From the IMG/VR virus record IMGVR_UViG_2778261246_000006: DNA of 34,300 nucleotides. One strand, 5' to 3'. The DNA comes from a virus. Taxonomy: Duplodnaviria > Heunggongvirae > Uroviricota > Caudoviricetes. Under the pieces are notes generated by a model. That model ran no database searches, was not told the origin of the DNA, and worked only from the letters and a program-made list of their open reading frames with translations. A program made the translations under genes and the position numbers. Positions 2,004-34,300 of this stretch are shown here, piece by piece; positions within the stretch are counted from its first letter, which is position 1, and each line of letters begins with the position of its first letter.

Positions 2004-2021
2004 TCCAAGTGAACTTTTATC

Positions 2022-2886: not shown

Positions 2887-2893
2887 GGTGCTT

Positions 2894-7192: not shown

Positions 7193-7284
7193 TTACGCAG
7201 GTTAACAATTCGTGCTCTTAATAATACCAGGCATATCAGGCTGATGAGCGTAAAAAAACGTTTTACATCAGTAAGATTATTATA

Positions 7285-7304: not shown

Positions 7305-7344
7305 GTTATGTATACAGTATTGCTTTGGTGTCATAGGAGGAAAG

Positions 7345-7533: not shown

Positions 7534-7543
7534 GGTGACTTTT

Positions 7544-7777
7544 ATGCGCATTGAAATAATGATCGATAAAGAGCAGAAGATTAGCCAGTCTACCCTGGAC
7601 GCCCTTGAATCCGAGCTTTACCGCAATCTGCGCCCCCTGTATCCCAAAACGGTAATTCGTATCCGTAAAGGTAGCTCTAACGGTGTGGAACTGACCGGAC
7701 TGCAACTGGACGAAGAAAGAAAACAAGTGATGAAAATTATGCAGAAGGTGTGGGAAGACGACAGCTGGCTGCATTAA
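7544..7777 (+). CDS. DinI-family protein (77 aa)
   Basis: MRIEIMIDK...ELYRNLRPLYP...KIMQKVWEDDSWL matches the DinI fold pattern recalled from E. coli DinI (MRIEVTIAK...ILQETWE..DDW); GAGGTG RBS. Confidence 0.75.
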   Translation: MRIEIMIDKEQKISQSTLDALESELYRNLRPLYPKTVIRIRKGSSNGVELTGLQLDEERKQVMKIMQKVWEDDSWLH

Positions 7778-7899
7778 GAAACGTTGCTGGCGTCTGAACT
7801 TGCTTCTGGCGTCAGCAAGGTTGAACAACGAGCTGTGCGAGGCGTTAGTTGATATAGTATCAATATATAAAAGGTTTCTCGAAGTTTTAAGGTAAGGTT

Positions 7900-8619: not shown

Positions 8620-8732
8620 CTGGAGGTTGGAAAAAGACCATTTCCTATAAGCTGAGTATTTCGTGCATTTTTGCCAACGCATGTCTATGCCGCATGAAAT
8701 CGCATGATCGTTTGAGGATCGTTTTTGCTGAT

Positions 8733-8759
8733 GCCCGCCAGAGCTGGCGGGCTTTTGCT
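8733..8759 (+). terminator. Candidate rho-independent terminator after the HNH gene
   Basis: GC-rich inverted repeat GCCCGCC...GGCGGGC followed by TTTTGCTT. Confidence 0.4.
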
Positions 8760-8881
8760 TATGTCATGCAGGTGCATGAAAACCACTACACAAAGCGGGC
8801 AGGCGTGGCGGGGATACGAGCGCGCGCAAACATGTTTACTTGCAATTAATGTAGATATATTCTGAAATTGATAACTTACAC

Positions 8882-9091
8882 ATGAAAGGAGACGTGAGAG
8901 TGGCAAAATATACACCGGGCCAGAAAGTAAAACATGCAACAGGACATGGTCCAATCATGGTAATTGATCACTACCAATCGGCTACAATGGCAGTTTGTAC
9001 GTGGTTTATTGGTGCTAAGAACCAGCGCGGAGTTTTTCACGAAGATACTCTAGTTTTATTTGTTCCAAAAGCTGAGAGTGATGATGAATGA
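8882..9091 (+). CDS. Small protein (69 aa), YodC/DUF2158-like
   Basis: Pattern GQKVKHATGHGPIMVID...CTWFIGAKNQRGVFHEDTLVLF resembles the GDxVxLKSGGPxMTV...CxWF...F motif of DUF2158 as recalled; start could instead be an internal GTG. Confidence 0.45.
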   Translation: MKGDVRVAKYTPGQKVKHATGHGPIMVIDHYQSATMAVCTWFIGAKNQRGVFHEDTLVLFVPKAESDDE

Positions 9092-9350
9092 TTCTCTGAT
9101 AAAAATAGTTGACTGGATGGTTAATACCACTCGTTCTAATGGTGTGTTGTATCAGTCCGAGGTTGTTGAATTTCTAATCAATGACTTTGGGGACGAGTTC
9201 ATCAAAACTAATGAGAATGGTAATTACGCTATAAGCAGTACTGTGCTAGCAAATTTTAGAAAGGCTAGCAAAGACGATATAGTTTGGGATCGTGAACAGT
9301 TAGCTTGGCGTTTACGCAATGAAAGCGATTTACCCGGACGGATGCAGTAG
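9084..9350 (+). CDS. Hypothetical small protein (88 aa), translationally coupled to the upstream gene
   Basis: ATG at 9084 overlaps the upstream stop (GATGATGAATGA); AT-rich; no motif recognised. Confidence 0.45.
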   Translation: MNDSLIKIVDWMVNTTRSNGVLYQSEVVEFLINDFGDEFIKTNENGNYAISSTVLANFRKASKDDIVWDREQLAWRLRNESDLPGRMQ

Positions 9351-9367
9351 AGATAATACAGATAATA

Positions 9368-9407
9368 GTGAACAAGCTGATAATTTCAACTTGTTCACTT
9401 CTTTTTT
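9368..9407. terminator. Bidirectional rho-independent terminator between the cargo island and portal gene Q
   Basis: Perfect 9-bp inverted repeat GTGAACAAG / CTTGTTCAC followed by TTCTTTTTTAT; lies between convergent genes. Confidence 0.6.
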
Positions 9408-17329: not shown

Positions 17330-17723
17330 AGCAGTGCCTTATGTCCGCAATAACCCGGACAAACTGCATCTGTTTGTGGATAACGGTTCGCTGGTTGCCA
17401 CGGGGGCCAGCTCCATGTCATGGGAGTACCGCTACACCCTGAACGTGGTGATTGAGGATTTCAGCGGCGACCAGAATCTGCTGATGGCCCCGGTTTTGCT
17501 GTGGCTGCGTGATAACCAGCCCGATGCCATCAATAACCCGGCGTTACGGGAAAAGCTATTCACCTTTGAGGTGGATATTCTGCGCAACGATGTCTGTGAT
17601 CTCAGCCTCAACCTGCAACTGACGGAGCGTGTGCTGGTCAGCACTGACGGCAGTGTGTCGAGCGTTGAAGCTATAGCGGAACCTGATGAACCTGAAGAAA
17701 TGTGGACAGTGAAACGTGGCTGA
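17292..17723 (+). CDS. R: Tail completion protein R (P2 gpR)
   Basis: AGGAG at 17280 then GTG 17292 (VNKPQSLRHAL...); the alternative ATG at 17271 has no RBS. Confidence 0.8.
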   Translation: MNKPQSLRHALNKAVPYVRNNPDKLHLFVDNGSLVATGASSMSWEYRYTLNVVIEDFSGDQNLLMAPVLLWLRDNQPDAINNPALREKLFTFEVDILRNDVCDLSLNLQLTERVLVSTDGSVSSVEAIAEPDEPEEMWTVKRG

Positions 17724-18162
17724 ACTGCAGAAAGTTGACGACTGGCTGAGTGCCTTGCTGGCGAATCTGGAGCCAGCCGCAAGAAGCCGCATGATGCGCC
17801 AGCTGGCGCAGGAACTACGCCGGACACAGCAGCAAAATATCAGAATGCAGCGCAATCCAGATGGCAGCAATTATGAACCGCGACGGGTAACAGCACGCAG
17901 TAAAAAAGGCCGTATCAAACGTCAGATGTTTGCAAAGCTGCGCACCACAAAATACCTGAAAACTGCCGCCAGCGCCGACTCTGCCAGCGTGCAGTTTGAA
18001 GGCAAGGTACAGCGCATTGCCCGTGTTCATCACTACGGCTTACGTGATCGCGTCAGCCGCAAAGGACCGGAGGTCCGTTACGCAGAGCGTCGCCTTCTGG
18101 GTGTAAATGATGATGTTGGGGCAATGACCCGCGACATGATTCTGCAATGGCTGGCGGGGTGA
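17716..18162 (+). CDS. S: Tail completion protein S (P2 gpS)
   Basis: 148 aa; GTG start overlapping the R stop. Confidence 0.8.
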   Translation: MAELQKVDDWLSALLANLEPAARSRMMRQLAQELRRTQQQNIRMQRNPDGSNYEPRRVTARSKKGRIKRQMFAKLRTTKYLKTAASADSASVQFEGKVQRIARVHHYGLRDRVSRKGPEVRYAERRLLGVNDDVGAMTRDMILQWLAG

Positions 18163-18166
18163 TTTT

Positions 18167-18184
18167 TGTATCAGCACTGATACA
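18167..18184. promoter_or_regulatory. Ogr/B-dependent late promoter element (TGT-N12-ACA; palindromic TGTATCAGCACTGATACA) upstream of V
   Basis: Matches the P2 PV promoter position and dyad. Confidence 0.55.
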
Positions 18185-18230
18185 AGTTGCAGCACTGCCG
18201 CCTTTCTTCCCCTGATGGCAACCTTTCCCT

Positions 18231-18809
18231 ATGAACGCACAATTAACCGAAATCATGCGCCTTATCACCAACCTGATCCGCACTGGGGTAGTCACCGAAG
18301 TGGACAGGACAAACTGGCTTTGCCGGGTGAAAACGGGCGACCTTGAAACCAACTGGATCAGCTGGCTGACGCTGCGTGCCGGGAATGCCCGGACATGGTG
18401 GCGACCATCGGAAGGTGAGCAGGTGGTGCTGCTGAGTATGGGCGGTAATCTGGAAACAGCTTTTGCGCTGCCCGCCATCTATTCGAATCAGTTCGCACCA
18501 CCGTCGACGTCGGCGGACGCCTGCGTGACAGAACATCCTGATGGTGGCTGGTTTGAATATGAACCCGCCACCGGGCGCTGGTATGTCAGGGGCATCAAAT
18601 CTATGGTCATTGAGGCCGTCGACAACATCACCCTGAAAACCAGTGAGTTTGTGCTGGAGGCTGACCGCACGCGTATTAACAGCGAAGTAGTGATCAATGG
18701 TGGCGTTACCCAGGGCGGCGGTGCAATGAGTTCTAACGGGATCGTGGTTGATGCGCATCAGCATACTGGCGTTCTGAAAGGCGGTGACACCACCGGAGGC
18801 CCGGTATGA
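18231..18809 (+). CDS. V: Baseplate spike/assembly protein V
   Basis: 192 aa; order V-W-J-I-H. Confidence 0.85.
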   Translation: MNAQLTEIMRLITNLIRTGVVTEVDRTNWLCRVKTGDLETNWISWLTLRAGNARTWWRPSEGEQVVLLSMGGNLETAFALPAIYSNQFAPPSTSADACVTEHPDGGWFEYEPATGRWYVRGIKSMVIEAVDNITLKTSEFVLEADRTRINSEVVINGGVTQGGGAMSSNGIVVDAHQHTGVLKGGDTTGGPV

Positions 18810-19165
18810 CGCTTTATAGCGGGATGAACAATACCAGCGGTAAGGCCATTACTGATATTGACCATCTGCGCCAGTCGGTGCGGGACATTTTGCTGACGCC
18901 GCAGGGTAGCCGCATTGCCCGTCGTGAATATGGTTCCCTGCTGTCGGCACTGATAGACCAGCCACAAAATCCGGCATTACGCCTGCAGGTCATGTCGGCA
19001 GTATATGTGGCGCTGAGTCGCTGGGAGCCACGGCTGACGCTGGATTCCATCACCATCAACAGCAACTTTGACGGTTCTATGGTGGTGGAGCTGACCGGGC
19101 GGCGGAATAACGGTGTGCCTGTGTCCCTTTCCGTATCAACAGGAGCAGAGAATGGCAGTGATTGA
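18806..19165 (+). CDS. W: Baseplate protein W (gp25-like)
   Basis: 119 aa; overlapping start with V stop. Confidence 0.85.
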   Translation: MTLYSGMNNTSGKAITDIDHLRQSVRDILLTPQGSRIARREYGSLLSALIDQPQNPALRLQVMSAVYVALSRWEPRLTLDSITINSNFDGSMVVELTGRRNNGVPVSLSVSTGAENGSD

Positions 19166-20060
19166 CCTTTCGCAGTTGCCTGCACCGCAGATTGTGGATG
19201 TGCCGGACTTTGAGACGCTGCTTGCCGAACGCAAGGCCGAATTTGTGGCGCTTCATCCGAAAGATGAGCAGGAAGCAGTGATCCGCACGCTGGAACTGGA
19301 ATCTGAACCCGTCACCAAATTGCTGCAGGAGAACGCTTACCGTGAGTTGCTTCTGCGCCAGCGCATTAACGAAGCCGCACAGGCGGTGATGGTGGCTTAC
19401 GCGATGGGCGGCGATCTTGACCAGCTCGCTGCCAACTACAACGTGACACGCCTGACGGTGACGCCTGCTGATAATGATGCTGTGCCGCCCGTTGCAGCTG
19501 TGATGGAAAGCGATGAAGCGTTACGCCTGCGTGTGCCTGCAGCCTTTGAAGGGCTTTCTGTTGCGGGGCCAACTGCAGCTTATGAATTTCATGCCCGAAG
19601 CGCCGACGGTCGGGTGGCGGATGCCAGTGCAACCAGCCCGGCACCTGCAGAGGTGGTGCTGACTGTCCTTAGCCGCGAAGGCGATGGAACTGCAGAAAAA
19701 GACCTGCTGGACGTGGTGGAAAAAGCTCTGAACAGTGAGAACGTCCGCCCGGTGGCTGACCGTCTTACGGTTCGCAGCGCAGAAATCATACCGTACCGCG
19801 TGGAAGCCACCATTTTTCTCTATCCGGGGCCGGAAGCAGAGCCGGTAATGGCAGCGGCAAAAGCCAGCCTGCAGAAGTACATCGCCAGTCAGACGCGGCT
19901 TGGTCGGGATATTCGCCGTAGCGCCATCTTTGCCGCCCTGCATGTTGAGGGTGTGCAGCGTGTGGAGCTGGCTTCGCCGCTGGCGGATGTGGTTTTGAAC
20001 AAAACGCAGGCGGCATCATGTACGGAGTGGAGCGTGACCAACGGGGGAACGGATGAATAG
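19152..20060 (+). CDS. J: Baseplate assembly protein J
   Basis: GGAGCAGAGA then ATG 19152 (MAVIDLSQLP...); 302 aa. Confidence 0.85.
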   Translation: MAVIDLSQLPAPQIVDVPDFETLLAERKAEFVALHPKDEQEAVIRTLELESEPVTKLLQENAYRELLLRQRINEAAQAVMVAYAMGGDLDQLAANYNVTRLTVTPADNDAVPPVAAVMESDEALRLRVPAAFEGLSVAGPTAAYEFHARSADGRVADASATSPAPAEVVLTVLSREGDGTAEKDLLDVVEKALNSENVRPVADRLTVRSAEIIPYRVEATIFLYPGPEAEPVMAAAKASLQKYIASQTRLGRDIRRSAIFAALHVEGVQRVELASPLADVVLNKTQAASCTEWSVTNGGTDE

Positions 20061-20658
20061 TCTGCTGCCATCGGGGTCAACTTCACTGGAGCACCGACTG
20101 GCGCAGACCTGTAGCGGGATTTCTGATCTGCAGGTGCCGCTGCGTGACTTGTGGAATCCGGCTACCTGCCCGGTCAGCTTCCTGCCTTATCTCGCCTGGG
20201 CGTTCTCTGTGGATCGCTGGGACGAAGGCTGGACAGAAAGCGTCAAGCGTCAGGTGGTGAAGGATGCTTTTTATATTCATCAGCATAAAGGGACCACCAG
20301 TGCCGTGCGGCGGGTGGTGGAGCCGTTCGGCTTTCTGATCCGCATTATTGAGTGGTGGCAGACCGGAGAGGCACCGGGCACGTTTCGTCTGGATATCGGC
20401 GTGCAGGACCAGGGCATCACTGAAGATACCTATCTGGAACTTGAGCGACTGATAAGCGATGCCAAACCATGTAGCCGTCACATGATCGGCATGTCCATCA
20501 ATCTGCAGACCAGCGGTCCGCATTGGGTGGGGGCCGCCAGCTATCTTGGCGAAGAAATCACGATCTATCCGTATATCAACGAAACAATTATTTCCGGCGG
20601 CACCGCGCATGAAGGTGGGGCGGTCCATGTTATTGACACAATGAGAGTGAATCCATGA
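20053..20658 (+). CDS. I: Baseplate/tail protein I
   Basis: 201 aa; overlapping start/stop with J and H. Confidence 0.85.
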   Translation: MNSLLPSGSTSLEHRLAQTCSGISDLQVPLRDLWNPATCPVSFLPYLAWAFSVDRWDEGWTESVKRQVVKDAFYIHQHKGTTSAVRRVVEPFGFLIRIIEWWQTGEAPGTFRLDIGVQDQGITEDTYLELERLISDAKPCSRHMIGMSINLQTSGPHWVGAASYLGEEITIYPYINETIISGGTAHEGGAVHVIDTMRVNP

Positions 20659-22052
20659 GCACAAAATTTTATACCCTGCTGACGGATATTGGCGCGGCGA
20701 AACTTGCCAGCGCCGCCGCGCTCGGTGTGCCTTTAAAAATTACCCATATGGCGGTCGGCGATGGCGGCGGAACATTGCCAACGCCGGACGCAAAGCAGAC
20801 AGCATTGGTAAATGAGAAACGCCGGGCTGCGCTGAATATGCTTTATATCGACCCGCAGAACAGCAGCCAGATTATTGCTGAACAGGTGATCCCTGAAAAC
20901 GAGGGCGGTTGGTGGATACGTGAAGTGGGCCTGTTTGATGAGTCCGGGGCATTGATTGCCGTGGGAAACTGCCCGGAAAGCTATAAGCCGCAACTGGCTG
21001 AAGGCAGCGGGCGTACCCAGACCGTGCGCATGGTGCTGATTACCAGCAGCACGGACAATATCACCCTGAAAATCGACCCTGCTGTAGTGCTGGCAACCCG
21101 TAAATACGTGGATGATAAAGTCCTGGAATTAAAGCTGTATGTGGATGACCAGATGAGAAACCACATTGCCGCACAAGATCCTCATACCCAGTATGCGCAG
21201 AAACATAATCCGACATTTACCGGAGAACCAAAAGCGCCGACGCCTGCAGCAGGAAATAACACCACTCGGATTGCGACCACAGAGTTTGTTCAGGCCGCTA
21301 TTACTGCTCTGATTAACGGTGCGCCAGCCACGCTGGACACACTGAAAGAAATTGCCGCAGCCATTAACAATGACCCGAAATTCAGTACCACTATTAATAA
21401 TGCGCTGGCACTGAAAGCGCCGCTGTCGAGTCCGGCACTCACCGGAACGCCAACAGCACCTACTGCGGCACAGTCGGTCAACAATACACAGATTGCCACC
21501 ACGGCATTTGTGAAATCGGCGATTGCGGCAATGGTGGGTTCTGCACCTGCGGCACTGGATACACTGAACGAACTGGCGGCGGCACTGGGGAATGATCCGA
21601 ACTTTGCCACGACAATGCTTAATGCGCTGGCAGGTAAACAACCGCTGGACAATACGCTGACTCATTTGAGTGGAAAGGATGTAGCAGGTCTTCTCGCATA
21701 CCTTGGTTTGGGGGAATTGGCTCTGGCTGGCGCAACAACCGGCGCTATGTTGGTGAATGGGTATGTAGCAATTCCATTAATTATTTCTGGCGTTCGGAGA
21801 CCACTTATTATCCAGTGGGGAGTGGGGCAGTTTGGGGGAAGTCTGGGGGATGATGCGGGATATTTAAACAATTTCCCTTTCGCTTTTCCGTCGGCGTGCT
21901 ACGTGATGGTTGCCAGCCACGTGGGGCATACACCTTCGGGTGCCGGAATACTATCTGCTTCCGCAATCACAAAAAGCGGCTTTCGTGGTTTTTCCAGCGT
22001 AGTGACTGCCGCAAATCCTGTATCGGGCTGTTATGTTGCTATAGGAGGGTGA
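20655..22052 (+). CDS. H: Tail fibre protein H (constant N-terminal part plus the currently expressed variable C-terminus)
   Basis: 465 aa; internal tail-fibre repeats; the C-terminal ~115 aa lie inside the invertible segment. Confidence 0.85.
   Translation: MSTKFYTLLTDIGAAKLASAAALGVPLKITHMAVGDGGGTLPTPDAKQTALVNEKRRAALNMLYIDPQNSSQIIAEQVIPENEGGWWIREVGLFDESGALIAVGNCPESYKPQLAEGSGRTQTVRMVLITSSTDNITLKIDPAVVLATRKYVDDKVLELKLYVDDQMRNHIAAQDPHTQYAQKHNPTFTGEPKAPTPAAGNNTTRIATTEFVQAAITALINGAPATLDTLKEIAAAINNDPKFSTTINNALALKAPLSSPALTGTPTAPTAAQSVNNTQIATTAFVKSAIAAMVGSAPAALDTLNELAAALGNDPNFATTMLNALAGKQPLDNTLTHLSGKDVAGLLAYLGLGELALAGATTGAMLVNGYVAIPLIISGVRRPLIIQWGVGQFGGSLGDDAGYLNNFPFAFPSACYVMVASHVGHTPSGAGILSASAITKSGFRGFSSVVTAANPVSGCYVAIGG
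21210..21650 (+). repeat. Two tandem ~72-aa tail-fibre repeats within H (approx. 21210-21425 and 21431-21650)
   Basis: Repeat 1 PTFTGEPKAPTPAAGNNTTRIATTEFVQAAITALINGAPATLDTLKEIAAAINNDPKFSTTINNALALKAPL vs repeat 2 PALTGTPTAPTAAQSVNNTQIATTAFVKSAIAAMVGSAPAALDTLNELAAALGNDPNFATTMLNALAGKQPL. Confidence 0.8.
21691..21716. repeat. Left inversion crossover site (pix/cix/gix-like) inside H
   Basis: TTCTCGCATACCTTGGTTTGGGGGAA; the reverse complement of 23509-23532 is TTCTTAAACGTTGGTTTGGGAGAA, sharing TTGGTTTGGG(G/A)GAA. Confidence 0.65.
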
Positions 22053-22053
22053 T

Positions 22054-22488
22054 GTGTTTTTTAGTCCATCTTTAAATATTTTTGTGAATCCTGCGCTTAA
22101 GGATGACTACATCAATGTAAATTCATGGCCAGATGATGCTGTTGAAGTTGATGAGCAGGTGTATATTGAGTTTTCCGGATTACCGCCGAAAGGAAAAATC
22201 CGTATCGCTGGGGAAAATGGTTTTCCTGCATGGTCTGAAATTCCACCACCAACGCATGAGGAACAGATTGCCGCAGCCGAATTGAAAAAACAGCAATTGA
22301 TTAATCAGTCCAACGAATATATGAATACCAAGCAATGGCCTGGTAAAGCGGCTATTGGTCGTCTGAAAGGTGAGGAACTGGCGCAATATAATTTGTGGCT
22401 GGATTATCTGGACGCACTGGAACTGGTTGATACCTCCAGTGCTCCAGATATTGAATGGCCTACGCCTCCGGCAGCTCAGGCCAGATGA
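22054..22488 (+). CDS. G: Tail fibre assembly chaperone (P2 gpG / Mu U-like), currently in the expressed orientation
   Basis: 144 aa; conserved C-terminal ...DTSSAPDIEWPTPP; GTG start right after the H stop. Confidence 0.75.
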   Translation: MFFSPSLNIFVNPALKDDYINVNSWPDDAVEVDEQVYIEFSGLPPKGKIRIAGENGFPAWSEIPPPTHEEQIAAAELKKQQLINQSNEYMNTKQWPGKAAIGRLKGEELAQYNLWLDYLDALELVDTSSAPDIEWPTPPAAQAR

Positions 22489-23053
22489 CATCAGGCGCGG
22501 TGCTGGTATCTGTTGCCGTCACCGCGTCAATGTAATCCAGCACAATGTTAAGTCGGGTGGTTTCTGCCTGCATTAGCTTCCGTCCGGCCCGTAATTTCAG
22601 CTGAATCAGACTGATGGAAGCCATTGCAGCATCAATCAGTGACTGGCGCTGTGCTTCTGCCGCTTCTACTGCGGCACCGTGTTGTGCCTCAGTATCTGTC
22701 ACCCATTTCTCACCATCCCATTTATCATATGGCGTTAACGGTGAAAGCGTGACATAACCGTTTTTGATGGCACCGATATAATCCACTGTAACAGCTGCGC
22801 CATTTTCGATTGAGTAAACAGTCTCATTGCGATGGTCTTCTTCATGGCTCCATCCCTTACCCGTAAATACTGCCACTTTTCCCGGAATGTTTTCGCCAGG
22901 GTCAATACCAGTGGAACAGGCGGGCATACTTACGCCAGTATTAATATATTCATCAGACCAGCCCGTATATTCATACGTTACTGCATCATAATAAAAACAA
23001 CGCATATCACCCGGCACTGTAGCCAGTCCATTTTCATCAAAAACAGGTTTCAT
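22460..23053 (-). CDS. Alternative tail fibre assembly chaperone (U'-like) in the silent orientation
   Basis: 197 aa; C-terminal ...DTSTAPDVIWPELPEA parallels gpG; convergent with G, 3' ends overlapping by 29 nt. Confidence 0.75.
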   Translation of the reverse strand: MKPVFDENGLATVPGDMRCFYYDAVTYEYTGWSDEYINTGVSMPACSTGIDPGENIPGKVAVFTGKGWSHEEDHRNETVYSIENGAAVTVDYIGAIKNGYVTLSPLTPYDKWDGEKWVTDTEAQHGAAVEAAEAQRQSLIDAAMASISLIQLKLRAGRKLMQAETTRLNIVLDYIDAVTATDTSTAPDVIWPELPEA

Positions 23054-23562
23054 TATTTAGCCCTTACTAAAAAGTTGAATGCGATGTTACGGGGACGCGT
23101 TTCAGTACCGCCTGGGTTTTGAAAAGCGGGCAAAGCACTTCCAGCCGGCTGACTAACGCCGCTGGTATATAATGGAGAAGCATTCGAAACGGTGCCAAAC
23201 ACTACATTACTGCCACTTCCATTTAGCCCTAAAATTTTATGCTCGTGCGTTTTGAAATCGTCTGATTGCGCGGAAAGTAACGCACGGCCACTATCAACAC
23301 CACGGCCATCATCCCAGATACGAATGAAATCACCGCGGGCTTCAGGTAATACCAGCGAAGGAAACACTTTTGCCAGCACAGGATAATCAGTGGCAGAGAA
23401 TTTCGCGCCGTTGAACTTCAAAAACACCATACTGGACCAGCTGTCGATTACAGTATTTGGCATTGCAGCGGACGGCCAGAAGAACGGAACGCCAATAGCT
23501 GGAGCACCTTCTCCCAAACCAACGTTTAAGAAAATGCAGAGGTAACAGCTAACTGGCATCAT
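23053..23562 (-). CDS. Alternative tail-fibre variable C-terminal segment (Sv'-like), promoterless; would fuse to the H constant region after inversion
   Basis: Minus-strand frame reads ...LGLGEGAPAIGVPFFWPSAAMPNTV..., sharing the LGLGE junction with H at the crossover site; the functional coding part starts at the crossover (~23520), not at the ORF-track ATG. Confidence 0.6.
   Translation of the reverse strand: MMPVSCYLCIFLNVGLGEGAPAIGVPFFWPSAAMPNTVIDSWSSMVFLKFNGAKFSATDYPVLAKVFPSLVLPEARGDFIRIWDDGRGVDSGRALLSAQSDDFKTHEHKILGLNGSGSNVVFGTVSNASPLYTSGVSQPAGSALPAFQNPGGTETRPRNIAFNFLVRAK
23509..23532. repeat. Right inversion crossover site (inverted relative to 21691-21716)
   Basis: TTCTCCCAAACCAACGTTTAAGAA; inverted repeat of the site inside H. 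Confidence 0.65.
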
Positions 23563-23589
23563 CTCCGGTTTTTATTCAGGGGGATGATC

Positions 23590-24156
23590 ATGCTTATTGG
23601 CTATGTACGCGTGTCAACAAATGACCAGAACACCGATTTGCAACGTAATGCACTGAACTGCGCGGGATGTGAGCGGATTTTTGAGGACAAAATCAGTGGC
23701 ACTAAGTCCGACAGACCGGGGCTGAAAAAACTACTCAGGACACTATCGGCAGGAGACACGCTGGTTGTCTGGAAGCTGGACAGGTTGGGGCGCAGTATGC
23801 GGCATCTTGTTACGCTGATAGAAGAGTTGCGCCAGCGTGGTGTGAATTTCAGAAGCCTGACTGACAGTATTGATACCAGTACCCCAATGGGCCGTTTCTT
23901 TTTTCATGTCATGGGTGCCCTGGCTGAAATGGAACGCGAACTGATAGTTGAACGTACCAGGGCAGGGCTGGCTGCAGCTCGTGCCAAAGGCAGAGTAGGT
24001 GGACGCCGTCCTAAGTTGACCACCGAACAGTGGGCACAGATTGGGCGTTTACTCGAGGCCGGAGAATCAAGACAGCGTATTGCACTGATTTTTGATGTAG
24101 GCGTTTCTACCATTTATAGAAAATTTCCGGCAAATAAGATCAATGAATCCCCCTGA
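23590..24156 (+). CDS. pin: Serine DNA invertase (Pin/Cin/Gin/Hin family)
   Basis: MLIGYVRVSTNDQNTDLQRNALNCAG... catalytic Ser in YVRVST; C-terminal HTH; near-identical in character to e14 Pin as recalled. Confidence 0.95.
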   Translation: MLIGYVRVSTNDQNTDLQRNALNCAGCERIFEDKISGTKSDRPGLKKLLRTLSAGDTLVVWKLDRLGRSMRHLVTLIEELRQRGVNFRSLTDSIDTSTPMGRFFFHVMGALAEMERELIVERTRAGLAAARAKGRVGGRRPKLTTEQWAQIGRLLEAGESRQRIALIFDVGVSTIYRKFPANKINESP

Positions 24157-24204
24157 ATCAGCATTATGTTGATTATCCCTGCAAGCAGACAAATACCGTT
24201 ATTT

Positions 24205-24222
24205 TGTGTGAATAACGACACA
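24205..24222. promoter_or_regulatory. Ogr/B-dependent late promoter element (TGT-N12-ACA) upstream of FI
   Basis: TGTGTGAATAACGACACA about 75-95 bp upstream of the FI ATG; matches the P2 PF promoter position. Confidence 0.5.
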
Positions 24223-24298
24223 ACTGCGCTTAGCTGTTTGTCAGGCACAATCACTTCAACATAGGGCGAAGCCTAATCCAATCAGGAGGTTCGCCACT

Positions 24299-25471
24299 AT
24301 GGCTCAGGATTACCACCACGGGGTGCGCGTTGTTGAAGTCAACGAAGGCACCCGATCTATTACCACGGTGAGCACCGCCATCGTGGGTATGGTCTGCACG
24401 GGCGATGATGCCGATGCAAAAATGTTTCCTCTTAATAAACCCGTGCTGATCACTGATGTGCTGACTGCCAGCGGTAAAGCGGGTGAGTCCGGTACTCTGG
24501 CCCGTTCGCTGGATGCCATCGCTGACCAGGCAAAACCCGTGACCATTGTTGTGCGTGTGCCGCAGGGTGAAACGGAAGACGAAACCACGACCAATATCAT
24601 CGGCGCAGTGACTGCTGAAGGTAAAAAAACAGGTATGAAAGCCCTGTTATCTGCCCAGTCACAGCTCGGCGTTAAACCGCGCATTCTCGGCGTGCCAGGC
24701 CACGACACCAAGGCGGTAGCTACTGAGTTGCTGAGCGTGGCGCAAAGCCTGCGTGGATTTGCTTACCTGTCAGCGTATGGCTGCAAGACAGTGCAGGAGG
24801 CGATCACTTACCGCGAAAACTTCAGCCAGCGCGAAGGGATGCTGATCTGGCCTGACTTTACTGGCTGGGACACGGTGCTGAATGCCGAAGCAACGGCATA
24901 TGCCACCGCCCGTGCGCTTGGTCTGCGCGCCAAAATTGACGAGCAGACCGGATGGCACAAAAGCCTGTCCAACGTGGGCGTGAACGGTGTCACCGGAATT
25001 TCTGCAGATGTGTTCTGGGATCTGCAGGACCCGGCAACCGATGCAGGTCTGCTGAACCAGAACGACGTCACCACGCTTGTGCGTAAAGACGGTTTCCGCT
25101 TCTGGGGTTCCCGCTGCCTGAGTGATGACCCGCTCTTTGCCTTCGAAAACTACACCCGCACGGCGCAGGTGCTGATGGACACGATGGCAGAAGCACACAT
25201 GTGGGCGGTGGATAAACCGCTTAACCCGTCGCTGGCCCGCGACATTATCGAAGGTATCCGCGCCAAAATGCGCAGCCTGGTCAGTCAGGGCTATCTCATT
25301 GGTGGTGATTGCTGGCTGGATGAGTCGGTGAACGACAAAGACACGCTGAAAGCCGGAAAACTCACCATCGACTACGACTACACGCCAGTGCCGCCACTTG
25401 AAAACCTGATGCTGCGTCAGCGCATCACCGATCAGTACCTGGTGAATTTCGCCAGCCAGGTCAGCGCGTAA
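24299..25471 (+). CDS. FI: Contractile tail sheath protein FI
   Basis: 390 aa; AGGAGG RBS; order FI-FII-E-T-U-D. Confidence 0.9.
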
Positions 25472-25480
25472 GGGGACAAC

Positions 25481-25996
25481 ATGGCTTTACCACGCAAATT
25501 AAAACACCTGAACCTGTTTAACGACGGGAACAACTGGCAGGGGATCGTTGAGTCGCTGACGCTGCCGAAATTTACCCGCAAATATGAGAAGTATCGCGGC
25601 GGCGGAATGCCGGGTGCGGTGGATGTGGATCTGGGGCTTGATGACAGTGCGCTGGACACAGAATTTTCCATTGGTGGTACTGAATTGCTGCTGTTTAAAC
25701 AGATGGGTAAAGCCACGGTGGATGGCATCCAGCTGCGCTTTACCGGCTCTATTCAGCGTGACGATACCGGGGAAGTGCAGGCCGTGGAGCTTGTCGTGCG
25801 TGGACGTCACAAAGAAGTGGATTCCGGCGAGTGGAAGACGGGCGAAAGCAACACCACCAAAGTGACCAGTACCAACAGCTACGCGAAGCTGACCATCAAT
25901 GGTGAGGTGCTCTATGAAGTGGACCTTATCAACATGGTGGAAATTGTGGACGGTGTGGACCTGATGGAAGCGCACCGCAACGCCCTCGGCCTCTGA
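25481..25996 (+). CDS. FII: Tail tube protein FII
   Basis: 171 aa; immediately after sheath. Confidence 0.9.
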   Translation: MALPRKLKHLNLFNDGNNWQGIVESLTLPKFTRKYEKYRGGGMPGAVDVDLGLDDSALDTEFSIGGTELLLFKQMGKATVDGIQLRFTGSIQRDDTGEVQAVELVVRGRHKEVDSGEWKTGESNTTKVTSTNSYAKLTINGEVLYEVDLINMVEIVDGVDLMEAHRNALGL

Positions 25997-26050
25997 TATA
26001 TCTGAACGGCGCGGGATACCGCGCCAGAACCCAATTGACAGGACAGCAAA

Positions 26051-26353
26051 ATGAGCGATAAGCAGACTGAAAAGACCATTCAACTGGATACCCCCATCAA
26101 GCGCGGTAAAACAGAAATCACCGAAATTGTGCTGCGTAAACCGCAGTCCGGTGCGCTGCGCGGTACACGCCTGCAGGCCATTATGGATATGGATGTAAAC
26201 GCGATGATGATCGTGATCCCCCGCATCTCCAGTCCGGCACTGACTGCACAGGAAATTGCAGAGATGGACCCGGCAGATCTCACTGCCATGTCGGTTGAGG
26301 TTGTCACTTTTTTGTTGAAGAAGTCGGTGCTTGCCGGTTTACCGACAGCCTGA
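26051..26353 (+). CDS. E: Tail assembly chaperone E
   Basis: 100 aa; contains slippery TTTTTTG at 26308-26314. Confidence 0.8.
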   Translation: MSDKQTEKTIQLDTPIKRGKTEITEIVLRKPQSGALRGTRLQAIMDMDVNAMMIVIPRISSPALTAQEIAEMDPADLTAMSVEVVTFLLKKSVLAGLPTA

Positions 26354-26487
26354 CGGTTGACGATCTGGTGGCAGATATCGCCACCATTTTTCACTGGCCG
26401 CCATCCGTTACTGACGTTATGCCGCTGACCGAAGTGCTGGAATGGCGGTATAAAGCGATTCAGAGAAGCGGGGCCAACGATGAGTGA
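26051..26487 (+). CDS. Tail assembly chaperone E+E' (programmed -1 frameshift product)
   Basis: After a -1 slip at T TTT TTG the -1 frame stays open from 26311 to the TGA at 26485-26487, overlapping the T start. Confidence 0.6.
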
Positions 26488-29400
26488 TAACAACCTGCGT
26501 CTGCAGGTCATTCTTAATGCGGTTGACAAGCTCACCCGCCCATTTCGATCTGCGCAGGCCAGTTCAAGAGAACTGGCTGCTGCTGTCAAAAAATCCCGCG
26601 ATGCAATAAAGCAGCTTGATCAGGCCGGGAGCAGTCTGGACAGCTTCCGAAAGCTGCAGGCAGAAAATCAGAAATTAGGCGACAGGCTGAACTATGCCCG
26701 CCAGCGTGCAAATTTGCTCAGTCAGGAACTGGGAGCGATGGGGCCGCCTTCGCAACGTCAGGTTGTTGCTCTGGGCCGTCAACGGCTGGCTGTTCAGCGC
26801 CTGGAAGAACGCCAGAAAAAGCTGCAGCAGCAGACGGCGCTTGTGCGTGCTGAACTGTACCGGGCGGGAATTTCTGCGAAAGACGATGCGGGAGCAACTG
26901 CCCGTTTAGCCCGTGAAACATCACGTTATAACCAGGAACTTTCGAAACAGGAGGCGCGGCTGAAGCGACTGGGGGAAGCTCAGCGCAGGATGAATGCAGC
27001 GCGTGCCAGTTATGCCCGTTCGCTGGAGGTGCGTGATCGTATTGCAGGTGCCGGAACCACTACCACGGCTGCAGGACTGGCAATGGGCGCACCAGTGATG
27101 GCGGCAGTAAAAAGCTATACCAGCATGGAAGATGCCATGAAAGGTGTGGCAAAGCAGGTCAATGGTCTGCGTGACGATAATGGCAACCGCACTGCACGTT
27201 TTTATGAAATGCAGGATGCCATCAAGGCTGCCAGCGAACAGTTGCCGATGGAAAACGGTGCGGTGGATTTCGCTGCACTGGTTGAAGGTGGTGCGCGCAT
27301 GAACGTCGCAAACCCTGACGACAGTTGGGAAGATCAGAAACGTGACCTGCTGGCCTTCGCCAGTACGGCAGCAAAGGCGGCAACAGCCTTTGAGCTGCCA
27401 GCGGATGAACTGTCAGAAAGTCTGGGGAAAATCGCCCAGCTCTACAAAATCCCCACCCGCAATATTGAACAGCTCGGTGATGCGCTGAACTATCTGGATG
27501 ATAACGCCATGTCGAAAGGGGCAGACATCATTGATGTGATGCAACGTCTGGGCGGTGTGGCTGACCGTCTGGATTATCGTAAAGCGGCGGCGCTGGGTTC
27601 CACCTTCCTGACACTGGGCGCTGCGCCAGAGGTTGCAGCCAGTGCAGCAAACGCGATGGTGCGTGAATTGTCCATTGCCACCATGCAAAGCAAAAGTTTC
27701 TTTGAAGGGATGAATCTGCTGAAACTCAATCCTGAAGTGATTGAAAAGCAGATGACGAAGGATGCGATGGGAACCATCCAGCGCGTGCTGGAGAAGGTAA
27801 ACGCGCTGCCGCAGGACAAGCGCCTGTCTGCCATGACTATGTTGTTTGGTAAAGAGTTTGGCGATGACGCGGCGAAACTGGCAAACAACCTGCCGGAACT
27901 GCAGCGTCAGTTAAAACTGACAGCGGGCAATGATGCGCTCGGCTCCATGCAGAAAGAATCCGACATTAACAAGGATTCACTTTCTGCGCAGTGGTTGCTG
28001 GTCAAAACCGGAGCGCAGAACACCTTCAGCAGCCTGGGCGAAACGCTGCGCCAGCCGCTGATGGATATTCTGTACACGGTGAAAAGCGTCACGGGGGCGT
28101 TGCGTCGCTGGGTGGAAGCTAACCCGGAACTGACAGGCACACTGATGAAAGCATCGGCTGTTGTGGCTGCGGTTACCGTCGGCCTCGGCACCTTAGCGGT
28201 GGCGCTGGCTGCAGTGCTGGGGCCGCTGGCAGTGATCCGTCTGGGATTCTCTGTGCTGGGTATCAAAACGTTATCTTCCGTTACGGCAGCAGTAACTCGA
28301 ACCAGCAGCGCGTTGTCCTGGCTGGCTGGCGCACCACTGGCACTGCTGCGACGCGGGCTTGCTTCATCGGGCAACGCCGCAGGTTTACTTACTGCGCCGT
28401 TGTCGTCTTTGCGCCGCACGGCATCACTGATGGGAAATGTCCTGAAAACTGTAGCAGGTGCGCCGGTTGCACTTTTGCGGTCTGGATTATCCGGTTTACG
28501 TGCTGTTGCTGTGATGTTTATGAATCCTCTGGCGGTACTGCGCGGTGGACTGGCCGCCGCAGGCACGGTGCTGCGAGTACTGGCATCTGGTCCACTGGCG
28601 ATGCTGCGCGTTGCCCTGTATGCCATATCTGGTCTGTTAGGTGCTCTGCTCAGTCCGATAGGTCTTGTGGTTACTGCACTGGCGGGCGTGGCGCTGGTTG
28701 TCTGGAAATACTGGCAACCCATCACCGCATTTCTCGGTGGCGTGGTGGAAGGATTCAAAGCGGCGGCAGGTCCCATCAGTGCAGCGTTCGAACCGCTTAA
28801 GCCCGTGTTCCAGTGGATTGGCGACAAAGTGCAGGCGCTGTGGGGCTGGTTTACTGATCTGCTGACGCCCGTTAAGTCGACCTCTGCCGAACTGCAGAGC
28901 GCAGCGGCAATGGGGCGGCGATTCGGGGAGGCACTGGCGGAAGGGCTGAATATGGTCATGCATCCGCTGGACTCCCTGAAATCCGGCGTTTCCTGGTTGC
29001 TGGAGAAGCTCGGCATTGTCAGTAAAGAGGCCGCAAAGGCAAAACTGCCGGAAAGCGTGACGCGTCAGCAACCTGCGACGGTGAATGCAGACGGTAAAGT
29101 GATGATGCCATCGGGTGGTTTTCCATCATGGGGATATGGCTTTGCGGGGATGTATGACAGCGGCGGGTATATCCCGCGCGGGCAGTTTGGCATCGTCGGT
29201 GAAAACGGGCCGGAAATTGTTAACGGCCCGGCAAATGTGACCAGCCGGAGAAATACAGCTGCACTGGCTGCCGTTGTTGCCGGAATGATGGGCGTTGCTG
29301 CCGCGCCAGCAGAGCTTCCACCGTTGCACCCTTTGGCACTTCCCGCGAAAGGTGGAGAAGCAATTGTGAGTCGCGCAGCCACTGTGCCGCTCGTTCAACG

Positions 29401-31226: not shown

Positions 31227-31445
31227 ATGATGATTTGCCCACTGTGTGGAAGTGCCGCCCATACTCGCAGCAGTTTTCAGGTATCTTCATTGACCAAAGA
31301 GCGTTACAACCAGTGCCAGAACATTAACTGCAGCCATACTTTTGTTACCCATGAAACTTTTGTTCGTTCGATTGCAACGCCAAAAGAGTCAAATCCGGTT
31401 CAGCCGCATCCAATGAAATCAGGACAAGTGGCGCTCTCTCTTTGA
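31227..31445 (+). CDS. ogr: Late-gene transcription activator, Ogr/B zinc-finger family
   Basis: MMICPLCGSAAHTRSS...NQCQNINCSHTF (CxxC...CxxxxC zinc finger); 72 aa from the ATG at 31227. Confidence 0.85.
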   Translation: MMICPLCGSAAHTRSSFQVSSLTKERYNQCQNINCSHTFVTHETFVRSIATPKESNPVQPHPMKSGQVALSL

Positions 31446-31525
31446 CGCTGCCGCCATTTTGTCGCCATCGTTAAAAAACAGTGCTTCTAACATCATGATT
31501 TTAAACGGTATAAATTTCAGACAAC

Positions 31526-31568
31526 AAAAAACCCATCAACCTTGAACCGAAATGGCGGGGTTGATGGG
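31526..31568 (-). terminator. Stem-loop with a T-run on the minus strand; candidate terminator downstream of ybjL, in the expected attR region
   Basis: Perfect 10-bp stem CCCATCAACC / GGTTGATGGG with 17-nt loop, preceded on the plus strand by AAAAAA. Confidence 0.45.
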
Positions 31569-31680
31569 CTCCACAAAATGGGGACATCAAAGAAAAGCAG
31601 TGGCACTAATTAAGACTGATGCCCTGCGGAAAAGTTCTGCGGTTGTGCAAAAAAATTTCATTTTCAGGGCAACTTCAGTT

Positions 31681-33366
31681 TTATCCTAATCCTGGCCATA
31701 CCATGACGATGATTGTCCCTGCCAGCGTCAGCAGGACGTTGGCGATTGCATAGGTGCCCGCATAGCCCAGCGCCGGGATGTTACTGCGAGCTGTATCACT
31801 GATGATCTCCATTGCCGGCGCGCAGGTACGTGCGCCCATCATTGCGCCGAACAACAGTGCGCGGTTCATTCGCAATACATAAGCACCGAACAAGAAACAG
31901 ATAACCACGGGCACCAGACTGACAATCAATCCGGCAATCAACATCTGACCGCCAATCGCGCCCAGGCCGTTATTAATACCGCTACCGGCGCTCAGACCAA
32001 CGCCTGCCATAAACACCATCAAGCCGAACTCTTTCACCATGCTTAATGCACCTTGCGGAATGTAACCGAAGGTCGGGTGGTTAGCACGCATAAAGCCCAG
32101 CATAATTCCGGCGAATAACAACCCGGCAGCGTTCCCCATGCCGAAACTGAATGTGCTGAACTGGAAGGTGATCATCCCGATCATCAGCCCAATAACAAAG
32201 AAGGCGCAAAATGCCAGCAGGTCAGTGACCTGGCTGTGAATCGAGATAAAGCCGATGCGATCGGCGATGGTTTTTACGCGACGGGCATCACCGCTGACTT
32301 GTAAAACGTCACCTTTGTTAAGCACGACGTTGTCATCTATCGGCATCTCAATCTGGCTACGAATGACGCGGTTAAGGAAGCAACCGTGATCGGTCAACTT
32401 CAGTTGTGCGAGACGTTTACCTACAGCGTTATGGTTTTTAACGACCACTTCTTCAGTGACGATACGCATGTCGAGAAGGTCACGATCGAAAACTTCTTTA
32501 CCGTTACGGAAGCTGGGATCGAGTCGGGCATGGGCGTCGGGATAGCCTACCAACGCTATTTCATCGCCCATTTGTAGCACGGCATCACCGTCTGGATTTG
32601 CCAGAATCCCGTTACGTCGAATACGTTCAATGTAGCAGCCGGTTTGTCGATAAATACCCAGTTCACGCAGATTTTTGCCGTCGGTCCAGGCCACCAGCTC
32701 CGGGCCGACGCGATAGGCGCGGATCACCGGTAAATAAACCTTACGGTTGGCATCAGTGTCCAGGCCACGTTCGCGGGCGATTTGCTGGGCGCTGGTCTGT
32801 AAGTCCTGATGCTGCAATTTCGGCAAGTAACGCGCACCAACAATCAAACTCACCAGACCGATTAAATAGGTTAAGGCATACCCGAGGCTCAGATTATCCA
32901 GTGCCAGTGAGAGCTGCCTGCTTTCCATGCCGAAATGACGCAGTGTATCGCCAGCACCGACCAGAACCGGTGTCGACGTCATAGAGCCTGCTAACATACC
33001 GGCCGTCAGGCCAATATCCCAGCCAAACAGCTTACCTAACCCTAAGGCGATCACCAGCGCACTGCCAACCATCACCAGTGCTAACATTAGGTAATTTTTC
33101 CCATCGCGAAAAAAAATGGAAAAAAAGTTCGGTCCGGCTTCGACCCCGACGCAGAAAATAAACAGCATAAAGCCAAGATTAAGCGCATCGGTGTTAATGC
33201 TGAAATGTTGTTGGCCTAATAACAGCGATACGACTAAAACGCCAATGGAATTACCCAGTTGGATCGAACCAAGTCGTAACTTTCCGAGACATAGCCCAAG
33301 CGCGAGGACCACAAATAATAACAGAATGTAATTCCCATTTAACAATTCGGCGACGTTTATATTCAC
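31681..33366 (-). CDS. ybjL: Putative transport protein YbjL (AAE-family transporter, 561 aa); host gene
   Basis: 561-aa polytopic membrane protein with a central soluble region; recognised with flanking ybjM and grxA as the E. coli ybjL-ybjM-grxA locus. Confidence 0.85.
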
Positions 33367-33635
33367 GGAGGCTAACTTCTTGTTTACTAGTAAGCTGTTG
33401 AAAGAAATGGTAATTTACGATAATGTTTTTTACCAGAATTCAGGGCGCAGATTCATTCAGCGCACCTAAACGATAGTAAAGTAACAATATATTTTACTAG
33501 TGTAATCACATTAGGTATCAACGGCTATATGAATTGCGTTGGCCTATATTAGCATGGAATGCGAAGCGGCTTTATCTTACTGAACGCCACACTGGCGAAA
33601 AATGTGTTCGATAGACGCAGTGTCAGGAGGAACGA

Positions 33636-34013
33636 GTGAAACATAAACAACGTTGGGCGGGGGCAATCTGCTGTTTTGTCCTCTTCATTGTGGTGTGCCT
33701 TTTTCTGGCGACGCACATGAAAGGCGCTTTTCGGGCTGCCGGGCATCCTGAAATCGGCTTGCTGTTTTTCATTCTTCCTGGAGCAGTTGCCAGTTTCTTT
33801 TCACAGCGTAGAGAAGTCCTGAAACCTCTATTTGGCGCAATGCTGGCGGCACCCTGTTCAATGCTTATTATGCGGCTGTTTTTTTCACCGACCCGCTCAT
33901 TCTGGCAAGAGCTGGCATGGTTACTAAGCGCGGTGTTCTGGTGTGCGCTGGGGGCACTGTGTTTCTTATTTATCAGTAGTTTGTTTAAACCACAGCACAG
34001 AAAAAATCAGTAA
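33636..34013 (+). CDS. ybjM: Inner membrane protein YbjM (125 aa); host gene
   Basis: Four hydrophobic segments; conserved neighbour of grxA. Confidence 0.8.
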   Translation: MKHKQRWAGAICCFVLFIVVCLFLATHMKGAFRAAGHPEIGLLFFILPGAVASFFSQRREVLKPLFGAMLAAPCSMLIMRLFFSPTRSFWQELAWLLSAVFWCALGALCFLFISSLFKPQHRKNQ

Positions 34014-34036
34014 AGCCCTCAACGCGAGGGCTTGTC
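34014..34036. terminator. Bidirectional terminator hairpin between ybjM and grxA
   Basis: AGCCCTC aacgc GAGGGCT between convergent genes. Confidence 0.55.
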
Positions 34037-34042
34037 AGACGA

Positions 34043-34300
34043 TCAGGCGTCCAGATTTTCTTTCACCCATGCAGCAAAATCGGTATAGCCGCCGATATGT
34101 TGCTGATCGACAAAAATCTGCGGCACGGTTTCTACGGGTTTACCTGCCTTTTGTTGTAGATCTTCTTTAGTGATCCCTTCCGCACGAATATCTACATACT
34201 GATACTGAAAATCATCGCGTTCATTGCTCAATTTCTCAGCCAGATCTTTTGCACGCACACAGTAAGGGCAACCCGGACGACCAAAAATAACGGTTTGCAT
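34043..34300 (-). CDS. grxA: Glutaredoxin 1
   Basis: 85 aa with CPYC active site (MQTVIFGRPGCPYCVRAK...); start codon at the window end. Confidence 0.9.
   Translation of the reverse strand: MQTVIFGRPGCPYCVRAKDLAEKLSNERDDFQYQYVDIRAEGITKEDLQQKAGKPVETVPQIFVDQQHIGGYTDFAAWVKENLDA

Follow-up and report, generated by a model that had tools for sequence, protein, structure and literature searches.

We are highly confident that the window (the whole stretch of DNA that was analysed, 34.3 kb) belongs to a P2/186-like prophage of E. coli and carries a host-range switch that a DNA invertase drives between two states. Copies with 99.95% identity or more to the window were found in both orientations, with their junctions at the crossover sites, and the switch, which is of the ordinary two-state type, is real and very probably functional. 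In what follows we describe the sites, the fibre cassettes that they bracket and the invertase, together with the other readings that the locus could be given, and then compare the locus with those of known phages.

The switch is bounded by two 26-bp imperfect palindromes with identical asymmetric 2-bp cores, as in the sites of Hin, Gin, Cin and Pin-type invertases. The left site (TTCTCGCATACC TT GGTTTGGGGGAA, 21691..21716) lies inside the fibre gene H, where it codes for LLAYLGLGE, and the right site (TTCTCCCAAACC AA CGTTTAAGAAAA) is at 23509..23534. The preliminary description, made from the sequence alone, had placed the repeats at 21691-21716 and 23509-23532, and the pattern search agreed with these positions except at the right end, which extends to 23534. 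Since the cores, TT on the left and AA on the right, are non-palindromic, the two sites are in inverted orientation. With up to three mismatches permitted, the palindromic invertase-site pattern TTCTCNNAAACCNNGGTTTNNGAGAA matched the whole window at these two places only, while none of 100 shuffles of the window contained any match (0 expected by chance). A half-site weight matrix, built with the two window sites included, scored them at 30-31 bits against 7.7 bits for the runner-up, and a repeat search of the window returned the same pair as an inverted repeat. A third crossover site, sought across the 34.3 kb with both the pattern and the half-site matrix, was not found, and the locus is therefore not a shufflon.

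As it stands, H (20655-22052, plus strand) codes for 465 amino acids, with a Pfam Phage_tail_fib N-terminus and a Gp53-like_C domain. Its constant N-terminal part, hereafter Hc (20655..21702, plus strand; PF12571 Phage_tail_fib over residues 1-150, E 2.9e-65), is preceded by P2-type V-W-J-I genes and lies outside the invertible segment, which measures about 1.8 kb between the core dinucleotides (21705..23520) and holds two convergent tip and chaperone cassettes on opposite strands. On the plus strand, the currently expressed variable C-terminus of H (tip A, 21717..22052) has a Gp53-like C-terminal domain (PF21882, E 4.1e-11), matches PHROG tail-fibre families and, weakly, the R1 pyocin fibre 6CXB (E 0.037), and is followed by a G/TfaP-like chaperone with a GTG start (chaperone A, 22054..22488; Caudo_TAP, E 2.8e-35). 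On the minus strand are a TfaE-like chaperone, silent in the present orientation (chaperone B, 22460..23053; Caudo_TAP, E 1.9e-25), and tip B (23053..23508), an alternative, start-less C-terminus of H that resembles e14 StfE and the collar of T4 gp37 (tail-fibre families phrog_3100 and phrog_523, E 1e-49 to 1e-51; T4 gp37, 2XGF, E 1.5e-8). Both cassettes, the silent one as well as the active one, are intact open reading frames. The ORF map and the Pfam and PHROG assignments thus bear out the earlier proposal that the repeats bracket the H C-terminus and its chaperone on the plus strand and an alternative chaperone and tip on the minus strand. BLASTP of the tips and chaperones against H and G of P2, S and U of Mu and S and U of P1 gave no similarity at E<0.01, and the cassettes are therefore e14-type and not Mu, P1 or P2-type.

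The minus-strand tip frame does continue through the right crossover site, as had been claimed (23053-23562 in the ORF list, including the extension across the site), but it does not share the LGLGE junction of H that had been ascribed to it: the site-spanning peptide is LGLGE in H and VGLGE on the minus strand, so that only GLGE is common to the two before inversion. In-silico inversion at the core kept the frame and yielded a fused protein of 505 amino acids (H'), in which Hc is joined to tip B and LGLGE is joined to GAP in the junction peptide. The fusion of the H constant region to a different tip, also foreseen in the preliminary description, is thus in frame, and the resulting protein is deposited from E. 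coli isolates. Given that the tips come from unrelated families (Gp53-like_C in one case and gp37-collar/StfE-like in the other), the two orientations would likely produce two virion types with different receptors.

The flip might, by analogy with e14, serve the lysogen besides, or instead of, the host range of the phage, if the Hc-tip B fusion were made in the lysogen and blocked the adsorption of other phages. Some ground for this reading comes from the identity of tip B to e14 StfE (42%) and of chaperone B to TfaE (61%), and the PinQ-driven flip of the e14 P segment is reported to give rise to StfE2, which prevents T2 from adsorbing (PMC12529663). However, the similarity to StfE is moderate, and the prophage seems complete, with H in a late operon that is intact. 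P2-type late genes require activation by Ogr, and little H is thus expected in a lysogen, which makes a role of this kind very unlikely. It is likewise very doubtful that a P2-like switch would serve at the same time as a phase-variable defence through its Hc-tip B fibre in the manner of e14 StfE2. The window Pin could possibly also act in trans on e14-type segments of the same cell.

In regards to the enzyme that would drive the host-range switch, the gene at 23590..24156 (plus strand) codes for a Pin-type serine DNA invertase (Pfam Resolvase, E 2.3e-53, and HTH_7, E 1.5e-15). Its start is most likely the ATG at 23590 (MLIGYVRVST), which gives 188 amino acids as annotated in relatives, and not 23584. 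The protein aligns over its full length with the Gin structures 3UJ3 and 4M6F (E 1e-92) and has the N-terminal catalytic Ser and C-terminal HTH of the small serine recombinases, which are about 185-195 aa long. The Ser of YVRVST, a substitution of which had been named as the sign of a catalytically dead enzyme, is intact (Ser9), and the DRLGR motif, the counterpart of the resolvase catalytic Asp/Arg cluster, is kept as well. The enzyme shares 86.7% identity with e14 PinE, 78% with P1 Cin and 75% with Mu Gin, and reaches 99.5% with that of Escherichia phage 500465-1. The start of the gene is 69 bp from the right core, and the corresponding spacing between site and invertase start in Mu is 67 bp.

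Within the invertase gene, at its 5′ end, lies a candidate Fis-dependent recombinational enhancer (23608..23679), recognized by its colinearity with P1 cin. It aligns with cin nucleotides 19-90, annotated in the P1 record as the enhancer of Cin-mediated inversion, without indels and with 56 of 72 positions identical (70% over the whole gene), which suggests that it may act as a Fis-dependent enhancer in the prophage too. Enhancers of this kind have two Fis sites at a fixed spacing, and two candidate 15-bp G...C cores are found in this region, at 23611-23625 and 23660-23674, in a register that we take to be that of the Hin Fis sites. A consensus scan for an invertase promoter gave matches at or below shuffle level, as did the search for a V-operon terminator in and beside the segment, where the only candidate was a weak hairpin at 23551-23570. 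A 12-bp perfect inverted repeat around the invertase ORF (23574-23585 and 24147-24158) was considered as a regulatory pairing and rejected: since e14, Mu, P1 and L013 lack it and the near-identical relatives show no variation in it, it has no comparative support, and by our own estimate about 0.4 such repeats would be expected by chance in the region.

Two of the deposited copies (L007 and L009) have the native orientation and match the window at 99.99-100% identity, and in two others (L008 and L011), the flanks of which are 99.98% identical to the window, exactly 21703-23525 is inverted. The L008 segment is inverted at 99.95% identity with flanks colinear with those of the window, and the same inversion between colinear flanks distinguishes L002 from L001. 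The breakpoints between the isomers fall within 21703-21716 and 23509-23525, inside the predicted sites, the L008 junctions are the predicted recombinant sites, and in both L008 and L011 chaperone B is directly downstream of the fused 505-aa H'. H' is encoded without any difference on 7 contigs of public E. coli assemblies, and native H on 12, and among 5426 complete E. coli genomes the junction of Hc with tip A was found in 21 and that with tip B in 46. One further contig (L010) has the right junction in its native form and, at its end, in exactly the flipped form that was predicted, which points to a mixed culture, although it could reflect two prophage copies instead. Since near-identical copies are found in both orientations, we infer that the window's own copy would switch as well.

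It could nevertheless be argued that the window carries a fossil switch, consisting of sites and gene remnants in a locked copy, and that the opposite-orientation copies in the databases record old events. The sites do depart from perfect palindromy and the invertase has no recognisable promoter, as would suit such a copy, but nucleotide copies that are 99.98-100% identical in both orientations imply that the segment inverted recently on the time scale of point mutation, one assembly holds both junction types, and the invertase is intact, as are the two tips and their chaperones, so that we regard a fossil as highly improbable. That the repeats are a mere conserved coding motif (GLGE) and that the variants arose when phages exchanged cassettes or recombined by homology is hardly credible. 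Unrelated prophage backbones do carry the module at 94-95% identity, with the similarity beginning at the crossover site, and horizontal exchange at this boundary therefore occurs. However, the isomers differ by a precise inversion alone, bounded by a shared core region of 14 bp, a length at which RecA would not recombine efficiently, and the repeats fit the 26-bp invertase-site consensus with the non-coding right half-site included.

Site-specific inversion by the Pin-type enzyme would then proceed as follows. The late V-operon transcript would cover V-W-J-I-H, in which codons 1-350 of H (Hc) are the fixed part. Dimers of the serine invertase would bind both 26-bp sites, assisted by host Fis on the putative enhancer that overlaps the 5′ end of their own gene, make 2-bp staggered cuts at the TT/AA cores, rotate one half-complex by 180 degrees and religate the ends, thereby flipping the 1.8-kb segment. 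In the present orientation Hc would be expressed with tip A (the Gp53-like domain), followed by chaperone A, and in the other orientation with tip B (gp37-collar/StfE-like) in frame, followed by chaperone B. With a different tip in each orientation, a single lysogen population would release two virion types of different receptor specificity. In this scheme the dependence on Fis and the enhancer, the rate of flipping and the actual receptors are what we infer.

The prophage around the switch has the P2-type late gene order (Q P O N M L ... V W J I H G FI FII E E' T U D ogr), and the corresponding Pfam families occur in P2 order (GPA, GPD, Tail_P2_I, Baseplate_J, GPW_gp25, Phage_base_V, P2_GpE, sheath and tube). 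It matches Klebsiella phage KP12 at 95.8% identity over 83% of the window, as well as other P2-like phages, and its immunity region is 186-type (CI/CII). A PADLOC search with the ORFs of the old/tin hotspot gave no match for the HNH protein. Between G and FI, chaperone A (ending at 22488) is followed by cassette B, the invertase (ending at 24156), a TGT-N12-ACA motif at the right edge of the slot (24205..24222, plus strand, read in the sequence) and FI at 24299. We take TGT-N12-ACA to be the consensus of the P2 late promoter activator site, and its position relative to FI is that of the activator site annotated in P2. The order in the P2 reference is H-G-terminator-fun(Z)-activator site/pF-FI with no invertase, in keeping with the preliminary description, according to which canonical P2 has no switch and the invertase stands in the place of Z/fun.

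The switch has little significance beyond correct annotation and adds no new mechanism. It does explain why RefSeq-style annotation calls the silent tip a pseudogene without an N-terminus, or H split, why assemblies break or carry hybrid junctions at this locus, and why near-identical prophages have different fibre proteins. In phage typing and therapy, two virion types with different receptor-binding tips should be expected per lysogen.

The architecture of the Mu G, P1 C and e14 P segments, invoked in the preliminary description, matches that of the window part by part. In the Mu G/Gin and P1 C/Cin systems too, the sites are 26 bp long around a 2-bp core, the constant N-terminus of the fibre is encoded outside the segment, two tip and chaperone cassettes converge within it, and the invertase lies just beyond; its 5′ end contains the enhancer, for which the window has the candidate at 23608..23679. 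Their segments are larger (3 and 4.2 kb in Mu and P1, respectively), and the core is GA/TC in Mu as opposed to AA/TT in the window, while P1 cixL/cixR have the same TT/AA core pair. In e14 the gene order and orientations (stfP-tfaP-tfaE-stfE'-pinE) are those of the window, the P segment is of similar size (1797 bp; PMC12529663), and the site beside pinE differs by 1 nt from the right site of the window. The e14 counterparts (StfP for tip A, TfaP for chaperone A, TfaE for chaperone B and StfE for tip B) are 39-61% identical to the window proteins, with 57% for TfaP, and e14 shows a similar spurious ORF extension across its right site (MPFACYFFIFINVGLGEG versus MMPVSCYLCIFLNVGLGEG). However, the e14 module sits in a lambdoid element that is defective and has Mu-like baseplate genes, whereas the module of the window is set in an intact P2/186-type late operon, from I to FI, and the constant part of its fibre is P2 H-like (PF12571), unlike that of e14.

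Canonical P2 (NC_001895) has the same late order, V-W-J-I-H-G ... FI-FII-E-T-U-D-ogr, with TGT-N12-ACA before FI, but its H is fixed, at 669 amino acids, and is followed by one G, and beyond a terminator comes fun(Z), with neither invertase nor crossover sites. The novelty that the preliminary description implied does not hold, since a switch of this kind at the Z/fun position is already well known in the P2-like family: invertible P2-like fibre segments and Z/fun invertases have been published, and the layout is routinely annotated. Inversion was demonstrated by sequencing and PCR in P2-like prophages of EPEC E2348/69 (PMC4272514), as published experiments show for e14 too, and invertases have been reported in the Z/fun hotspot of P2-like phages (bioRxiv 10.1101/2024.10.15.618418). 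One EPEC P2-like locus has three repeats (a shufflon), in contrast to the two sites of the window. The deposited phages 500465-1, Cartapus, pro483, KP12 and 'P2' KC618326 carry the two-variant layout in the same slot, after H/G and before FI, and APEC IMT5155 has the module at about 97% identity. Compared with these P2-like invertible fibre loci, that of the window differs only in its particular combination of tips.

The tail-fibre gene H (20655-22052, plus strand) encodes a protein of 465 aa that begins like a P2-type fibre (PF12571, E 3e-65) and ends in a Gp53-like domain (PF21882); on the same strand the gene is followed by chaperone A (22054-22488, Caudo_TAP). Facing them on the minus strand are chaperone B (22460-23053, also Caudo_TAP) and the tip B ORF, ending at 23053, which matched tail-fibre PHROGs (E 1e-49 to 1e-51) and had no Pfam match. 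At the sequence level, tip B (23053-23508) resembles the T4 gp37 collar domain (2XGF, E 1.5e-8), and tip A (21717-22052) gives a weak match to the foot of the R1 pyocin fibre (6CXB, E 0.037); the two tips are thus members of unrelated families.

The palindromic pattern of Hin/Gin/Cin-type crossover sites, searched with up to 3 mismatches over the whole 34.3-kb window, had exactly two matches, at 21691-21716 (TTCTCGCATACC-TT-GGTTTGGGGGAA) and 23509-23534 (TTCTCCCAAACC-AA-CGTTTAAGAAAA), and none in 100 dinucleotide-preserving shuffles; a separate repeat search recovered the same pair as inverted repeat I2. The preliminary description had located the left site and the start of the right one correctly, but ended the latter at 23532 instead of 23534. 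With TT at the centre of the left site and AA at that of the right, the two sites share an identical, non-palindromic core and face in opposite directions. A half-site weight matrix scored them at 30-31 bits versus 7.7 for the next best position, but what counts here is just the width of that gap, as the matrix was trained on Mu, P1, e14 and these two sites themselves. Neither pattern search nor matrix found a third crossover site in the 34.3-kb window.

When 21705-23520 was inverted in silico, cutting at the cores, the constant N-terminal part of H (Hc, 20655-21702) fused in frame with tip B to give a 505-aa fibre, H', with the junction ..AYLGLGE|GAPAIGVPFFWPS... The in-frame fusion to another tip thus stands as first described, but to call the LGLGE junction shared with H is a little imprecise, the minus-strand frame reading VGLGE prior to inversion. 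In relatives (L001 7654-8115; L002 5256-6761) RefSeq calls the silent tip a pseudogene "missing N-terminus" and, in the flipped isomer, splits H into two partial pseudogenes; such calls are artefacts that arise from the invertibility of the fibre genes and are no sign of decay.

The decisive test of flipping came from public data, that is, from near-identical copies of the element rather than from a culture of the source strain. The complete genomes of two E. coli strains, APEC IMT5155 (L001) and MFDS1006657 (L002), carry 98%-identical P2-like prophages in which the segment alone is inverted, and the BLAST breakpoints overlap precisely over the stretch common to both sites. By exact-sequence look-up in public E. 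coli assemblies, H' was found with every residue as predicted on 7 contigs, and native H on 12. Among the listed contigs that encode the exact chaperone B and were aligned, two have the native orientation, L007 at 99.99% identity to window 17460-28053 and L009 at 100% over 17460-24164. In L008 and L011 the flanks are 99.98% identical to the window and 21703-23525 is inverted at 99.95%, the junction sequences of L008 being the predicted recombinant sites. One further contig, L010 (GCA_002227625.1, NLJK01000025.1), contains the native right junction, with tip B by the invertase flank, and at its end (6310-6468) 131 nt that match the predicted flipped right junction exactly, with tip A in that place (window 21717-21756 in reverse complement, fused to 23521-23639). 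A genome with two prophage copies could yield such a contig, but the repeat in common is just about 14 bp long, so it most likely records reads of both isomers in one sequenced culture. Finally, junction-specific 301-nt queries against 5426 complete E. coli genomes detected the Hc-tip A junction in 21 and the Hc-tip B junction in 46. Taken together, these comparisons of public sequences show that the element is inverted at the sites predicted for it, and that this happens fast compared with point mutation.

The DNA invertase (23590-24156, plus strand; Resolvase and HTH_7) aligns with the Mu Gin structures 3UJ3 and 4M6F over 184 residues (E about 1e-92), and both the catalytic Ser9 and the DRLGR motif are in place. 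The label "Pin-type" is borne out by its identity to e14 PinE (86.7%), above P1 Cin (77.8%) and Mu Gin (74.6%); to the invertase of Escherichia phage 500465-1 it is 99.5% identical. In the P1 record, the enhancer of Cin-mediated inversion is marked at nt 19-90 of cin; the two genes are colinear without indels, with 56/72 identical positions in the corresponding stretch (23608-23679) and 70% over the whole gene. Because of this homology and the Fis/enhancer-dependent mechanism established for the family (PMC3798978), we infer a putative enhancer, and Fis dependence, at 23608-23679. The right core lies 69 bp from the invertase start, versus 67 bp in Mu.

The interval from the right site to the start of the invertase contains a weak hairpin with a T-run after it (23551-23575), which belongs to a TGGCATCAT...TTTT stretch conserved upstream of pinE and gin, and could be a terminator of fibre-operon read-through or part of the invertase control region. 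A perfect 12-bp inverted repeat, ATTCAGGGGGAT / ATCCCCCTGAAT (23574-23585 and 24147-24158), brackets the invertase ORF, its arms covering the Shine-Dalgarno and the stop codon. Close relatives have it unchanged, but it is absent from e14, Mu, P1 and L013 (another P2-family prophage), and has an expectation by chance in the region that we estimate at ~0.4; it may be a coincidence or a lineage-specific mRNA pairing.

With the sites, the in-frame H' and both isomers in public genomes, the invertible tail-fibre switch is upheld as a whole, and we are highly confident in a Pin-type, two-state inversion that exchanges the fibre tip together with its chaperone. The invertase, presumably with Fis and the enhancer, would flip the segment so that Hc is followed by the other tip and its chaperone.

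PinQ-driven inversion of the P segment of e14 is reported to produce StfE2, which blocks T2 adsorption (PMC12529663). A similar defence role for the tip B fusion is conceivable since tip B is a StfE homologue, but seems very improbable given that H lies in a late operon that depends on Ogr, within an intact prophage.

The early region (1-9400) is 186-type, not P2-type: integrase (1-1188, minus), CI (1428-2003, minus) and CII/CP76 (2371-2886), both of the 186 type, a D12-class (Dam-class) adenine methyltransferase (3864-4781), the gpA replication protein (4778-7192) and a DinI-like protein (7472-7777). The old/tin hotspot contains a 239-aa HNH-domain protein without a PADLOC match (7900-8619) and small ORFs (8882-9091; 9060-9350). 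The element has a full P2-type late region, is 95.8% identical to Klebsiella phage KP12 over 83% of its length, and looks like an intact prophage. Its right end (within 31228-34300) comprises an ogr-like zinc-finger gene (31228-31446) and a hairpin (about 31526-31570), followed by chromosomal ybjL (31681-33366, minus), ybjM (33636-34013) and grxA, which are 99.8% identical to E. coli, so that the host is E. coli and the prophage is integrated beside ybjL.

Such crossover sites have long been thought to double as boundaries of horizontal cassette exchange. The module with its invertase (21699-23900) is also present, with 94-95% of nucleotides identical, in a prophage at ssrA that has an e14/Mu-type baseplate and is annotated stfP/pinE (L012, 7001-9193), and in another P2-family prophage in which the sheath, tube and tape-measure genes point in the reverse direction (L013, 7001-9202). 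As similarity begins at the left crossover site in both, a role for this site as an exchange boundary would fit.

In regards to known systems, e14 has counterparts of all four cassette proteins (StfP 39%, local; TfaP 57%; TfaE 61%; StfE 42%), and its site adjoining pinE is one base off the right site; P1 cixL/cixR have the same core pair. BLASTP found no similarity between the cassettes and the tips and chaperones of P2 H/G, Mu S/U or P1 S/U. In reference P2, which has no invertase and no such switch, H (669 aa) and G are followed by a terminator, then by fun(Z), which runs the opposite way, the activator site of pF and FI, whereas here the G-FI gap contains cassette B and the invertase, in the Z/fun slot as previously proposed, then TGT-N12-ACA (24205-24222) and FI at 24299; this motif, 77-94 bp upstream of the FI start, has the same position as the Ogr activator site annotated in P2. 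Goldberg et al. 2014 reported inversions, by whole-genome sequencing with PCR confirmation, in e14 and in a pair of P2-like prophages carried by EPEC E2348/69, where the locus was a simple two-variant one in the first case and a shufflon with three repeats in the second (PMC4272514), and according to Egorov et al. 2024 a DNA invertase is often encoded at the Z/fun hotspot of P2 and comes with inversion of neighbouring genes (bioRxiv 10.1101/2024.10.15.618418). The deposited P2-like phages 500465-1, Cartapus, pro483, KP12 and O157:H43 "P2" are likewise annotated with a fibre, two assembly proteins and a DNA invertase. On all these grounds the switch is an already known arrangement, correctly read.
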